Source: Candidatus Poribacteria bacterium
Lineage (GTDB): Bacteria; Poribacteria; WGA-4E; WGA-3G
Length of the DNA stretch: 64,000 bases
NCBI GenBank assembly: GCA_963663765.2
Contig: CAXXUA010000004.1
Coordinates: forward strand, 1,120,001-1,184,000
Direction: 5' to 3'
Below the pieces are notes generated by a model. It was not told the DNA's origin. It ran no database searches and worked only from the letters and a program-made list of their open reading frames with translations. Within the stretch, counting starts at the first letter, position 1, and every line of letters starts with the position of its first letter. Of the stretch, positions 14,151-18,933 are shown in pieces. Made by a program: the position numbers and the translations under genes.

Positions 14151-14223
<73 letters not shown>

Positions 14224-14240
14224 AAACGTCCTAAGGTACA

Positions 14241-14313
14241 AGCGGGAGACGGGATTCGAACCCGCGACGCATGGCTTGGAAGGCCAATGCTCTACCAGCT
14301 GAGCTACTCCCGC
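14241..14313 (-). tRNA. tRNA-Gly(TCC)
   Basis: GCGGGAGTAGCTCAGCTGGTAGAGCATTGGCCTTCCAAGCCA...GGTTCGAATCCCGTCTCCCGCT. Confidence 0.95.
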
Positions 14314-14325
14314 AGAAAAAACCAA

Positions 14326-14407
14326 TGGGGGCGGACGGATTCGAACCGCCGTAGGCATAGCCAACAGATTTACAGTCTGCCCTTTTTGACCGCTCAAGCA
14401 CACCCCC
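14326..14407 (-). tRNA. tRNA-Tyr(GTA)
   Basis: GGGGGTGTGCTTGAGCGGTCAAAAAGGGCAGACTGTAAATCTG, long variable arm, GGTTCGAATCC. Confidence 0.95.
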
Positions 14408-14415
14408 AAAATAGA

Positions 14416-14487
14416 AGCTGACGAGAGGAATCGAACCTCCAACCTAGTGATTACAAATCACTCGCTCTACCGTTGAGCCACGTCAGC
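14416..14487 (-). tRNA. tRNA-Thr(TGT)
   Basis: GCTGACGTGGCTCAACGGTAGAGCGAGTGATTTGTAATCACT...GGTTCGATTCC. Confidence 0.95.
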
Positions 14488-14512
14488 ATTCAACCTTGTC
14501 TCTCTTCTATTA

Positions 14513-14965
14513 GTGATACTCACGACGAATAAAGTCGTGTGCTTCTTTGAAACACATAACTCTCCTCTGTGTGATTCCTGCTTCCGTCTCTCGTGCCTCT
14601 ATACTGAACTGCGCGAGGTCTTACTCGGACTCCAAAAGCGTTTATGCTCTCGGTATATCCTACCGCGAGGTAAAAGATTGATACGCACTCTGTATCTTAA
14701 TTTCCTTGATAATATAGCGTCTTGGGCGATGATGTCTACCGCAACTTGTCCCTCTGGGGATCCGCCAAGTTTTACTATAGGCACACTTCCCATAACTACG
14801 GTGCCAGTGGACTGCCTACTTGTTCGCAGTGTGGACTTCGGTTCGACATACGTTATTTCGCATTACGTTACAGAGCCTTGCTTGTCTCAAATAATTAAAA
14901 TACTCCCGCACGAGTTTACATTATTAGACCCAAGCCTAAAGACTTGGGATTGTCAGATAATTCCC
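14513..14965 (-). mobile_element. Non-autonomous IS200/IS605 derivative (PATE-like) with a TnpB omegaRNA-like right end
   Basis: Left-end hairpin CAAT-CCCAAGTCTTTAGGCTTGGG shortly after TGAA. Right end GAAG-CACACGACTTTATTCGTCGTGAGTA-TCAC. Internal GGTAGGATATACCG..AACGCTTTTGGAG..GTAAGACC..GAAGCAGGAA resembles tnpB 3' ends. No intact ORF, no TIRs. Confidence 0.7.
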
Positions 14966-15182
14966 TTCATAAAACGGGTAACACCTCAAACTCTATTGAG
15001 GTAAGACCTACGCACAAAACGGTAAGCACACTTTGTGTAAGCACACTGAAAACTGCGTAAATCCTATGAGGTAATTCAATATTCACCCCTTTAAGTATAC
15101 AAACTAAATTCACTATTGTCAAAAAAATATCTGATATGGATTGTCTATCGCAGCTGCGTAACAATTATCCCGTTCTTCAAAA

Positions 15183-15638
15183 TTATCCTGATTCTGTTGG
15201 TTCGGACTCAGAATCACCGTCATTGTTTTCCGATTCAGCAGTTTCAGACTCATCAGCAGTTTCAGACTCATCATCAGTTTCAGACTCATCAGCAGTTTCA
15301 GACTCATCAGCAGTTTCAGCCGCACTGTCACCAGAATCATCTCCACTATCTTCTACAGATTGTTCACCGTAAAGTTCAACTAAGTGATCCTCGCTATCAG
15401 ATTCAGAGGTAAAGAGTGCTGGTACTTCTTCCTGCGAAACTTTCGGATCAACCACATTATACGACAATTCTCCTGAAGACAACTCTTCTGTTGCTACAGT
15501 AATAGGTTTCTGATTCTGAGCGAAACCTGCTCCTAAAAGTTGGTCATTTAATGAACGCGCACGTTTTGCAATAACGTTTACTGCCAAATATTTATTCGGC
15601 ACATGCTTTATCAAATCTTCAAGGTAGACAATTGCCAT
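15183..15638 (-). CDS. rpoZ: RNA polymerase omega subunit with acidic repeat tail
   Basis: NKYLAVNVIAKRARSL...KPITVATEELSSGEL; GGAG RBS before MAIVY; tail of 18-bp (ADESET) repeats. Confidence 0.88.
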   Translation of the reverse strand: MAIVYLEDLIKHVPNKYLAVNVIAKRARSLNDQLLGAGFAQNQKPITVATEELSSGELSYNVVDPKVSQEEVPALFTSESDSEDHLVELYGEQSVEDSGDDSGDSAAETADESETADESETDDESETADESETAESENNDGDSESEPTESG

Positions 15639-15784: not shown

Positions 15785-16858
15785 ATGGGAATGCACAATA
15801 ACGTTAAATATATCTTGGAAAAAGCACTTGATGGGAAACGTTTAGACTTTGATGACGCACTAACCCTCTTTAAAAGTCATGATCTCCTTCCTTTAGGTCA
15901 TGCCGCTGATACTATCCGACAAAGAAAACACCCAGAAGGATACATTACTTATATTATAGATAGAAACATAAACTATACAAATTGGTGTTATGTTGATTGC
16001 GATTTCTGTGCATTTTATCGCCACCGAAAAGACCCCGATGCCTATGTAATGGAACGCGATCAACTCGGACAAAAAATACAAGAAACACTGGAGTTAGGCG
16101 GTGAACTCATTCTTATGCAAGGTGGACTCCACCCAAAACTCAAATTGGAGTGGTATGAAGATCTACTCCGATGGATAAAAGCGAACTACAAAATTCATAT
16201 ACACGGATTTTCTCCGCCAGAATTAGATTGGTTCGCCAAAATCAACAAAATGCCTTTACGTGAGATGCTCACACGACTACGTGATGCTGGTCTGGATTCT
16301 ATACCCGGAGGTGGAGCGGAAATCTTAACGGATCGCTCGCGGAACATCATCAGTCCTAAGAAATGCACCGCAGAGGAATGGCTTGAAGTGATGCGGCAAG
16401 GACACTACGTCAACCTCAAATCCAGTGCTACCATGATGTATGGACACGTAGAAAGTTACACAGAACGTGTTGAACATCTAATGAAATTGCGCGACCTGCA
16501 AGATGAAACAGGCGGATTCACAGCGTTTATCTGTTGGTCATTTCAACCCAGCAACACCGAACTTGCACACATCCCACCCGCAGGAAGTTACGAATACCTC
16601 AAAACATTAGCAATCTCACGCTTATTCTTAGATAACATTGATAACTTCCAATCATCGTGGGTTACACAAGGTCCCAAAATCGGACAACTCTCATTAAAGT
16701 TCGGAGCAAATGACATGGGAGGAACGATGATTGAAGAAAACGTCGTCAGCAAAGCAGGCACAGTTTATTGCATGCCAATTGAAGAAATAGAACGAACTAT
16801 CGCAGAATTGGGATATGTTCCAAAACGAAGAAACTTTTTCTATGACATTCTCAATTAA
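15785..16858 (+). CDS. mqnC: Cyclic dehypoxanthinyl futalosine synthase (radical SAM)
   Basis: YIIDRNINYTNWCYVDCDFCAFYR, SIPGGGAEIL, GGFTAFICWSFQP, SWVTQG, GANDMGGTMIEENVV. Confidence 0.92.
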   Translation: MGMHNNVKYILEKALDGKRLDFDDALTLFKSHDLLPLGHAADTIRQRKHPEGYITYIIDRNINYTNWCYVDCDFCAFYRHRKDPDAYVMERDQLGQKIQETLELGGELILMQGGLHPKLKLEWYEDLLRWIKANYKIHIHGFSPPELDWFAKINKMPLREMLTRLRDAGLDSIPGGGAEILTDRSRNIISPKKCTAEEWLEVMRQGHYVNLKSSATMMYGHVESYTERVEHLMKLRDLQDETGGFTAFICWSFQPSNTELAHIPPAGSYEYLKTLAISRLFLDNIDNFQSSWVTQGPKIGQLSLKFGANDMGGTMIEENVVSKAGTVYCMPIEEIERTIAELGYVPKRRNFFYDILN

Positions 16859-18933
16859 CGATAGTCCTCATGAATCCAAACATTCGCTGCTAACGCCTTT
16901 TTCCTTGCACCAAGCCAATTAACATACGCATCACTTTTCTTACTATCAAGAAGTGTCTTATAACGTTTAACCTTCTGCGTAGGATCCATTTGGTACTCTT
17001 CAAAATCCGGTTCTACACGTTCAACTAATTCTATAATATAAGTTGAAGAATCCTCAGCAAATGGTCCCCTCACATCCCCAACAGACATTGTAAACGCAGC
17101 TAACATCACACCTCTCGCGTACCCCATACCAGAAATATAAGTACTTCCTGCCACAAGACCAAAAAGGTTGCTCTCTTGAACAGTCTTTTCAGCAATTGAT
17201 GTGCCTTCAGGTGCTATATACTTTTTGATTAACGCCTCCAATGACACACCTTCTGTCCGTTGATCTATCAACTTCTGAGCATCTGCGAAAGCACGCTCTT
17301 TTGACTTCTCTCGTTCAACATCGTCTATCACTTGTCGCTTAACATCTTCAAACTCAGGAATGCCTGGTGCTTTCTTACCAAGAAGCGTCACAACAAAAAT
17401 GGCAGAAACTTCATTTGTGTATCTTGCTTTCGTCTCAATAGTGTTTGTAACGCCTACCTCCATGTCAAAAACTTCCTCTAACAATCCTCTGTAAAGTGTA
17501 CTTGATATTACTGGCGGAATATCTACGCCATCTTTACTGAAAAAACCCGTTTCACCAGATTCAAGCGATAGATCCTTATATTTATCAAGTCCAATAGCAG
17601 TCTCATAATCCGCAACCTCAATCTCAAAAATCAAATCTTTCGCTACGGCTTCTGCTCCATCCACACCATCTATCTGGACCAGTTTATCCTTAATATCGCT
17701 TTCTACTACTGGGAAAGGTGTCACTAAGGCTGGTTGCTTTTCTTCCAATTGGATAATGTGATACCCGAATTTGCTTTCAACAAGATCACTTACTTCACCC
17801 GGTTGTAATACATCAAAACACGCTTCTGCAAAAGGCTTTACCGCATATCCGCGATCAAAATATTTACCCTCTGGCAAATGATCATAACTTCTACCCAACG
17901 CACCACCATCAACCGCACTACTATCCTCTGAATGCTTCTCAGCAAGGTCAGCAAATGTTGTACCTGCAGCCATTTCTTCTTTTACAGTTTTGAGTAGTTC
18001 TTCCGCAGCCGCTTTTGTTTCCGTTTTTTGTTCATCGGTGGCATCGTCTGGGAACTTTTTCAAAATATGTCGTGCTTTGACTAATTCAGGGTTCATGAAG
18101 ATGTTCTGATTATTTGTGTAATACTGTTCAATAGTTGCCTGTGTAACAAAATGCTCAGGATTAACATTGATATAACGGATATTTACCTGCTCTTCGGTTG
18201 CATAGTCTTCCTTGTTTTCTTGGAAGTACTTATCAATCTCTGCTTTGTTTTCTTGGAAGTACTTATCAATATCTACATCCTCTACATCCTCTACATCCTC
18301 TACATCCTCTACATCCTCTACATCCTCTACATCCTCTACATCCTCTACATCCTCTACATCCTCTACATCCTCTGCATCAAAGGTTTTTTCGTAATCGCTG
18401 TGTCGAAATTCAATGAATTTCACCTTTGCTTTGTTCGCCTCAAGTTGATAATCCTGTTCCGCTTCAGTGTCAGTAACTAATTCAAGGCTTTGGATACCAT
18501 CTCGTAGTGAAGACGTACTGAGTTGATATCTATAGAAATCCAGCACATCAGGTCCGAATTGATTATATGTTAATACCCGGTTTTCATCACTTCGGATATA
18601 ATGCATTACCTCAGAATCGGTGATATTCGCACTACCTTCAATGATCCTTGTTATATAACTATTAATTAATTGCTTTTGTATCGCTTTCCGATCTGGTTCC
18701 GCACCAAACCTTGGGTTCTGTTGCTGTTGGCGTACTACTTGTGAAATACGATCTTCAAAAACCCTTCTTGTAACTTCCAATGTGTCAAGCTTGAGTACAA
18801 CTTCGTCTTCAGTTCCCGTATTCTGTTGACCACCAGAACCACCATACAACATTATGGTACCAATAATGAAGACAACAGCAATTATCCACATAAATATCTG
18901 TGCTATGAATTTTTCACGTAGAAAAATAATCAT
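16855..18933 (-). CDS. PpiD/SurA-like membrane-anchored peptidyl-prolyl isomerase chaperone
   Basis: N-terminal anchor and SurA-N-like region; parvulin motifs VKARHIL, FADLAEKHSED, VSDLVESKFGYHIIQL. Confidence 0.85.
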   Translation of the reverse strand: MIIFLREKFIAQIFMWIIAVVFIIGTIMLYGGSGGQQNTGTEDEVVLKLDTLEVTRRVFEDRISQVVRQQQQNPRFGAEPDRKAIQKQLINSYITRIIEGSANITDSEVMHYIRSDENRVLTYNQFGPDVLDFYRYQLSTSSLRDGIQSLELVTDTEAEQDYQLEANKAKVKFIEFRHSDYEKTFDAEDVEDVEDVEDVEDVEDVEDVEDVEDVEDVEDVDIDKYFQENKAEIDKYFQENKEDYATEEQVNIRYINVNPEHFVTQATIEQYYTNNQNIFMNPELVKARHILKKFPDDATDEQKTETKAAAEELLKTVKEEMAAGTTFADLAEKHSEDSSAVDGGALGRSYDHLPEGKYFDRGYAVKPFAEACFDVLQPGEVSDLVESKFGYHIIQLEEKQPALVTPFPVVESDIKDKLVQIDGVDGAEAVAKDLIFEIEVADYETAIGLDKYKDLSLESGETGFFSKDGVDIPPVISSTLYRGLLEEVFDMEVGVTNTIETKARYTNEVSAIFVVTLLGKKAPGIPEFEDVKRQVIDDVEREKSKERAFADAQKLIDQRTEGVSLEALIKKYIAPEGTSIAEKTVQESNLFGLVAGSTYISGMGYARGVMLAAFTMSVGDVRGPFAEDSSTYIIELVERVEPDFEEYQMDPTQKVKRYKTLLDSKKSDAYVNWLGARKKALAANVWIHEDYR
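18272..18370. repeat. In-frame VNTR, 11 x 9 bp (TCTACATCC), encoding (EDV)n
   Basis: Perfect tandem units read directly; adjacent duplication encodes IDKYFQENK twice. Confidence 0.95.

Follow-up and report, generated by a model that had tools for sequence, protein, structure and literature searches.

A gene-less IS605-type element with a covarying RNA domain in a tRNA operon leader of Candidatus Poribacteria

The insertion in the tRNA operon leader

We analysed a window of 64,000 nucleotides (the whole stretch of DNA under study) from a sponge-symbiotic Candidatus Poribacteria bacterium, whose genome comprises 6.35 Mb in 15 contigs. Along the minus strand of the locus lie, in order, an RpoZ-family gene (15725–15183; Pfam RNA_pol_Rpb6), a promoter, a leader, the motif TGAA, a 453-nt element, a 25-nt flank and tRNA-Thr(tgt). 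The promoter of the tRNA operon is sigma70-like (TTGACA-17-TATACT; 15094–15122; score, 11/12) and is followed by a presumably transcribed leader of 124 nt (14970–15093) that reaches to the insertion site. The TGAA (14966–14969), conserved target and predicted TAM, touches the left end of the element (LE; 14918–14965), which carries the DNA guide CAAT (14952–14949), 13 nt from the TGAA, and a hairpin (CCCAAG/CTTGGG; 14948–14929). The 247-nt interior (14671–14917) corresponds to a structured non-coding RNA domain with two multi-helix sub-domains, and the remainder (14513–14670), homologous to the 3' ends of resident tnpB genes, combines a TnpB omegaRNA scaffold with the right end (RE), where GAAG (14545–14542) abuts a hairpin (14541–14519) and TCAC (14516–14513) closes the element. 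The 25-nt flank (14488–14512) is at once a candidate guide and a remnant of the original tRNA leader; directly after it comes tRNA-Thr(tgt) (14487–14416), the first of four tRNA genes (Thr(tgt), Tyr(gta), Gly(tcc) and Thr(ggt); 14151–14487, minus strand), with L33, tRNA-Trp, SecE, NusG and L11 next. All of the sequence details reported in a first-pass annotation of this DNA (both hairpins, CAAT, TGAA, GAAG, TCAC, the flank and the tRNA) were recovered at their places.

The element is co-oriented (sense) with the operon in whose leader it lies. Three tRNA genes downstream of it (Gly(tcc), Thr(ggt) and Trp(cca)) occur only once in the genome and, given the promoter upstream, transcription has to cross the element or begin inside it. 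An internal promoter candidate (TAGACA-16-TATATT; 14738–14711) was rejected, being weakly kept in other copies, as was an antisense open frame of 152 codons over the element, which is open only in the two copies within genome G000 (longest frame elsewhere, 55–120 codons). The promoter core is conserved in 8 of the 39 congeners searched, approximately 40–100 nt upstream of tRNA-Thr(TGT), and in all eight the element is absent between promoter and tRNA, consistent with the proposed position in a tRNA operon leader. The flank is homologous to the 3' part of these element-free leaders. These congener leaders have diverged too far for the boundary of the empty site to be placed to the base.

Contigs assembled from RNA libraries (Logan contigs of four runs of one study, in which DNA carry-over is possible) cover the leader, LE and interior, and two of them bridge leader and element (X8, 14538–15189; X11, 14663–15443). 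Two runs have contigs that end at 14663, in one of them with adaptor letters. A contig of one run ends, also with adaptor letters, at 14538, ahead of the RE hairpin, so the guide may be missing from some transcripts. The RE–guide–tRNA junction of this locus is uncovered by contigs of the four runs, which has no bearing either way. Contigs starting at 14514 were set aside, as they belong to another copy with a different flank.

Several features of the surroundings were recorded in passing. Part of the leader (15002–15054) is 80–86% like two other stretches of the genome (C4:601984-602031 and C8:68206-68242), may be a small repeat and is absent from the congeners. The RpoZ-family protein ends in an acidic C-terminal repeat of ETADES units (15183–15330, minus strand), from which an RNA-library contig of a related strain differs by many small deletions, indicating that the repeat number varies between strains. 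A 692-aa ORF (16855–18933, minus strand) contains ten EDV repeats in the middle of the protein (EDVEDVEDV...). The genome also yields a second tRNA-Thr(tgt) call (C4:1012005–1012096) of 92 nt, a length unusual for a Thr tRNA; it may contain an intron or an atypical variable arm, or the call may be false.

Relationship to resident IS605 elements

Searching the genome with the element gave 46 matches. Four elements of 1381 nt carry a verified 368-aa ORF, and a fifth copy of this type has a full-length tblastn match (88% identity); further copies include one of 1778 nt with a broken tnpB and deletion derivatives of 652, 396 and 157 nt. A twin of the window element (458 nt) is 98% identical and has unrelated flanks, which indicates recent mobility. 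In ten copies in this genome the similarity runs from [A/T]TGAA to TCAC, with differing flanks beyond, and the same boundaries were found at 27 independent sites in 14 genomes (counted after dropping the orthologous duplicates L096, L098 and L079 and the truncated L084, which shares its flank with L071). Recurring in this way across copies with unrelated flanks, the boundaries are not a product of chance. The target motif precedes LE at all 27 sites (TGAA, with TGAG once and TTGAA once; the preceding base varies), in line with the predicted TAM ending in TGAA. The window LE is 87–89% identical to that of full-length elements of the same family (family A), and its hairpin pairs are kept in 25 copies (helix 1 of the model described below). 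The elements have subterminal imperfect hairpins at both ends and lack terminal inverted repeats and ORFs. They occupy many different sites, in each case 3' of a tetranucleotide of constant type and with no duplication of the target, as is characteristic of palindrome-associated transposable elements (PATEs). The first-pass description of a protein-free IS605 derivative is therefore borne out by exact ends in multiple copies and by the absence of a conserved frame.

In IS608, the cleavage site base-pairs with a tetranucleotide that precedes the hairpin (GAAT with TCAA in the IS608 scheme). Comparison by eye showed that the RE guide and cleavage tetranucleotides covary across subfamilies (GAAG/TCAC, GAAT/TCAA and GAAC/TCAG), their fourth positions changing as G-C, T-A and C-G, which is what the IS608 model predicts. 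The LE pairs, also read by eye, are CAAT/TGAA and AAAA/TTAT.

The 368-aa ORF matches the Pfam families OrfB_IS605, Cas12f1-like TNB and HTH_OrfB_IS605, and this resident TnpB aligns end to end with the solved ISDra2 TnpB structures (E = 3e-47). Its GIDVG, IETL and DRD motifs, which we take to be the RuvC motifs with their catalytic residues, are in place. A cognate tnpB with the same ends, which the first-pass annotation had expected elsewhere in the genome, is thus present in the 1381-nt elements; the TldR partner that it had offered as an option finds no counterpart in this TnpB, which keeps its RuvC motifs. The genome holds a second tnpB family (family B; approximately 20 further copies, 73–75% amino acid identity) and a third consisting of four tnpA+tnpB IS605 elements. 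Y1_Tnp has six matches in the genome, four of them strong and located in an IS605 family with TTAAC...TATGAC ends, whose hairpins have similar TTTAG loops; no Y1 TnpA was found in the genome within an element with ends matching those of the window element.

Other copies show variation of their own. L069 (C3:94400-96100, same genome) is a full-length chimera that joins a family-A LE and TnpB (88% identity) to a family-B scaffold and RE ending in TCAG, indicating that ends and guide-RNA modules recombine between families. L021 and L022 (G020:C1:181917-184159) are two short elements 1.3 kb apart in the same orientation. L076 and L079 (G131 and G117) have an insertion of approximately 30–60 nt in the LE hairpin and the target TGAG, not TGAA. 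Otherwise identical copies (L024, L032, L033 and L034, in G003, G020 and G013) show recurring GTA[A/T] to GTCC differences at unrelated positions, which could stem from systematic miscalling of bases at a modified motif or represent a true signature of mutation.

The last 158 nt of the element (14670–14513) share 93–94% identity with the 3' ends of full-length copies, the homology starting 15 nt before the tnpB stop, in agreement with the first-pass view that the last ~165 nt resemble an omegaRNA. Aligning 29 scaffold regions from several genomes yielded a consensus fold of 21 pairs, 10 of which show compensatory changes, and helices 11–14 of the whole-element model support the same scaffold. 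In the window copy one scaffold pair is lost through a G-to-T change at 14635; RNA-library contigs of related strains have G at this position. Judged by this homology, the element retains the omegaRNA scaffold of the resident TnpB family, with a predicted role as TnpB guide RNA. By eye in the alignment, ATCAATCTT..CTCGCGGTAGGA (compare ..INLRTLAVG followed by the stop) looks like a relic of the last tnpB codons. Of the TnpB C-terminal remnants proposed at first, these last few codons are what stands; the interior is a conserved RNA domain, and 'SCGRHH', read as a TnpB scrap, found no support in tblastn of the cognate TnpB against the element (best E = 0.77).

The 25-nt flank has no second match in the genome at up to 5 mismatches in 25. 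Its sole target is therefore the empty allele, as holds for every IS605 copy. By its sequence it is a homing guide of the usual kind rather than one put to a new use. Two targets had been suggested for it, the empty allele and another locus; the whole-genome search leaves the former, the guide matching its own flank only. The best other match (17/20) lies inside a 13-copy repeat, lacks TGAA, has mismatches at guide positions 2, 3 and 9, and was judged to be chance (approximately 0.35 such matches expected by our own arithmetic). The 20-mer of this repeat is preceded by ATCACA, and one copy lies within a tnpA–tnpB IS605 element at C5:354245.

A conserved interior RNA domain and insertion behind promoters

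The interior (14917–14671) is the best-conserved part of the element among 16 copies (80–98% identity), and no reading frame is conserved across them; one scaffold segment has 35–44% identity in 14 copies from other genomes. Searched against its own genome (nhmmer --max), the interior matched only the twin copy (next best, E = 0.11) and the cognate TnpB gave nothing better than E = 0.77 in tblastn; these searches led us to reject the reading of the interior as tnpB debris. A covariance model built on the interior core (R1; 14895–14718) had 31 matches in 14 of 151 Poribacteria genomes, representing 2 of 22 genera, and all matches that were examined lie within ORF-less elements of 430–481 nt. 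The same interior is joined to four types of RE and scaffold: family A ending in TCAC, a type with a UUCG-like hairpin ending in TCAC, a type ending in TCAA, and family B ending in TCAG. A 20-nt invariant block was found at 18 Poribacteria loci, plus one chance match in Arthrobacter, in a scan of genome contigs, and had no match in a scan of metagenomes. Conservation is mosaic, with a 32-nt invariant block adjoining diverged stretches in copies that are 72% alike.

A 14-helix model of the whole element was tested on a plain MAFFT alignment of 25 elements. Of its 62 pairs, 23 have changes on both sides (2–11 when partners are slid), 96.6% of cells are paired (34–49% with slid partners), and its covariation score was reached by none of 500 shuffles, in a test biased in the model's favour by a structure partly derived from the same sequences. 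Frequent G-U pairs assign the fold to the minus strand; it may instead serve the transposed single-stranded DNA. A long-range CUUGG/CCAAG stem (97.1% of cells paired) was preferred to the local hairpin AACUUG/CAAGUU (89.8%). A complementarity between AACCGAAGUC in the interior and GACUUCGGUU in the scaffold was rejected, as the latter does not covary with the interior; GACUUCGGUU is a covarying UUCG-type hairpin that is absent from the window type. Rfam gave no match over 14300–15300 (Intron_gpI to E = 10) or in five other copies (E = 1). The interior is thus a conserved multi-helix RNA domain that looks new and is found only in short ORF-less elements. As to its role, we can only guess at stabilization or processing of a precursor, or protection against Rho polarity.

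The sites of the family are distinctive in their promoter context. Counting same-strand sigma70-like promoters that match at 10 or more of 12 positions (thresholds picked after inspection of the data), a promoter ends 5–35 nt upstream at 7 of 27 sites and lies within 200 nt at 11. For random TGAA sites the corresponding counts are 35 and 179 of 3621, and for random TGAA sites outside long ORFs 17 (3%) and 50 of 547; family-B ends give 1 and 4 of 22, and other A-type ends 0 of 8 in both ranges. Promoters pointing inward from the RE side were found at 0 of 24 sites. Binomial tails are approximately 1e-5 (our own arithmetic, with post hoc thresholds). We read this as an enrichment of the short elements just behind host promoters, which looks new.

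Within this distribution, tRNA leaders account for 2 of the 27 sites, the remainder lying before protein genes or between genes. The second tRNA-leader copy (L059/L075) is 35 nt before tRNA-Val in another genus and is both independent and divergent. Several sites fall between a promoter and the Shine-Dalgarno sequence or ATG, or between cistrons. The body of a long ORF is interrupted at none of the 27 sites; where an insertion comes nearest to this, it replaces a few C-terminal codons. Among downstream ORFs of 198 aa or more, orientation agrees with that of the short element at 12 of 12 sites, compared with 9 of 13 full-length family-B sites; given the family-B figure, co-orientation is not special to the short family.

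Proposed explanation and comparison with known systems

We propose, with a probability of roughly 0.65, that the window element is an ORF-less, PATE-type IS200/IS605 element of a family so far confined to Poribacteria that relies on host transcription and on TnpB supplied in trans. It would have inserted 3' of TGAA into the tRNA operon leader, in sense orientation, as a unit of four parts: LE, a family-specific folded RNA domain of approximately 250 nt, the omegaRNA scaffold of the resident TnpB, and RE. Transcription from the operon promoter would read through the element and yield a precursor that carries, 3' of the scaffold, the 25-nt flank as guide. Resident TnpB, loaded with this RNA in trans, would cut the empty allele (TGAA+TAATAGAAGAGAGACAAG) after excision, and the element would be restored (homing or retention; Meers et al. 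2023). Short elements would then persist preferentially where a host promoter supplies transcription.

We would tentatively go further for the interior, on what is for now a minority bet: it may be a new functional RNA module (acting in processing, stabilization, TnpB loading or anti-polarity, or as an unrecognized ribozyme) that lets gene-less IS605 elements live in host leaders and operon spacers, with TnpB homing retaining only those copies that lie behind promoters. Such 'promoter-hitchhiking' PATEs would include the tRNA-leader copy as one instance.

A rather unlikely alternative, along the lines of the first-pass annotation, assigns the tRNA a part in making the guide RNA: by cleaving at tRNA +1, RNase P would define where an omegaRNA of approximately 175–190 nt, both abundant and discrete, ends on its 3' side, and the position in the tRNA leader would have been selected for this. 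The geometry fits, with RE ending 25 nt before tRNA +1 and a second, divergent copy (L059/L075) placed comparably before tRNA-Val in another genus. The contig ends at 14663 would also fit a 5' end approximately 150 nt before the end of RE, but may equally be an assembly-graph break at a repeat boundary. Against this alternative, tRNA leaders make up no more than 2 of the 27 sites, the RE–guide–tRNA junction does not appear among the RNA contigs, and TnpB guides are not known to need a defined 3' end.

The element might otherwise be an inert passenger, a mobilizable or decaying PATE tolerated in the leader, whose RNA has no function and whose conservation reflects recent spread. Copies in the g1 genus are indeed 80–98% alike, and the window copy has one broken scaffold pair. 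Such a passenger role sits poorly with the mosaic conservation (the 32-nt invariant block beside diverged stretches in copies 72% alike), with the many compensatory changes, with the occurrence of the same interior on four RE types and with the enrichment behind promoters, and we consider this explanation unlikely.

Improbable, in our judgement, is an IStron-like arrangement in which the interior is a self-splicing or self-cleaving ribozyme by which the element would be cut out of host transcripts, rendering leader insertions harmless. Group I introns are preceded by U at the 5' splice site and end in G; in this family A precedes LE, and the element ends in C (TCAC) or A (TCAA). A ribozyme would be consistent with the large covarying fold, the sense orientation within transcription units, the discrete contig ends and a GNRA-like loop on one hairpin, and ORF-less splicing IStrons and PATEs with IStron ends are described in the portion of that literature available to us (10.1101/2023.11.20.567912). 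However, Rfam shows no group I intron or ribozyme match (E = 10 for 14300–15300, E = 1 for five other copies), long-ORF bodies are interrupted at 0 of 27 sites, and contigs of the four RNA-library runs show no joint that skips the element.

That the element is a domesticated regulator, its guide directing a nuclease-dead TnpB relative of the TldR type to a host target, we regard as very improbable despite its promoter-proximal place in a core operon: the guide has no second match (the best, 17/20, lacks TGAA, is mismatched next to the TAM and lies inside another IS), the cognate TnpB is full length with RuvC motifs, and the flank is just what remains of the former leader.

While omegaRNA-bearing PATEs have been described before, the question raised here is what sustains a gene-less, promoter-less copy. 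If retention by TnpB requires a guide transcribed across the element's own RE, then host promoters would decide which copies survive, and the present family can test this. Covarying, present on four RE types and without an Rfam match, the interior is a candidate for a new RNA motif joined to a TnpB guide RNA. It might be relevant to guide biogenesis, or to the way in which insertion remains harmless in the leaders of essential operons such as this one, with its single-copy tRNAs and secE–nusG–L11.

Among known systems, ISDra2 and IS608 share with the window family a TnpB that aligns over its full length, a scaffold that overlaps the tnpB stop and RE, and the RE tetranucleotide scheme; the window element differs in having neither tnpA nor tnpB in cis, and its predicted TAM is TGAA rather than TTGAT or TTAC. 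TldR proteins are reportedly domesticated TnpB transcription factors, and a TnpB-type guide RNA next to a host promoter is common to both; the window guide, by contrast, is the element's own flank, with no nuclease-dead partner or separate target. IStrons, including ORF-less minimal forms, fuse a group I intron to an omegaRNA (10.1101/2023.11.20.567912) and, as far as the available part of that account goes, resemble the window family in uniting a large structured RNA with an omegaRNA in a transposon that lies in sense orientation in host transcripts; the window family, in contrast, lacks a group I intron signature, misfits the splice-site bases and avoids gene bodies. PATEs such as the ORF-less ISGst-type elements of Geobacillus stearothermophilus likewise show, in the sections of the literature consulted, hairpins at LE and RE; they lack an ORF, carry an omegaRNA at RE and insert 3' of a short conserved motif. 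In the excerpted text of Meers et al. 2023 (PMC10055086), PATEs 'often encode omegaRNAs' that are used in trans by the TnpB of other IS copies, and the core idea of the first-pass annotation, a PATE omegaRNA used in trans, is thus already in print. Relative to these PATEs, the window family adds a covarying RNA domain of approximately 250 nt between LE and the omegaRNA, and the enrichment near promoters; in the portions of the published texts searched (without supplements), we found no natural omegaRNA in a tRNA leader, no promoter-proximal PATE family and no added RNA domain of this kind. In principle, the element therefore looks like an ordinary PATE, whose structured RNA module and position behind promoters look new and testable.
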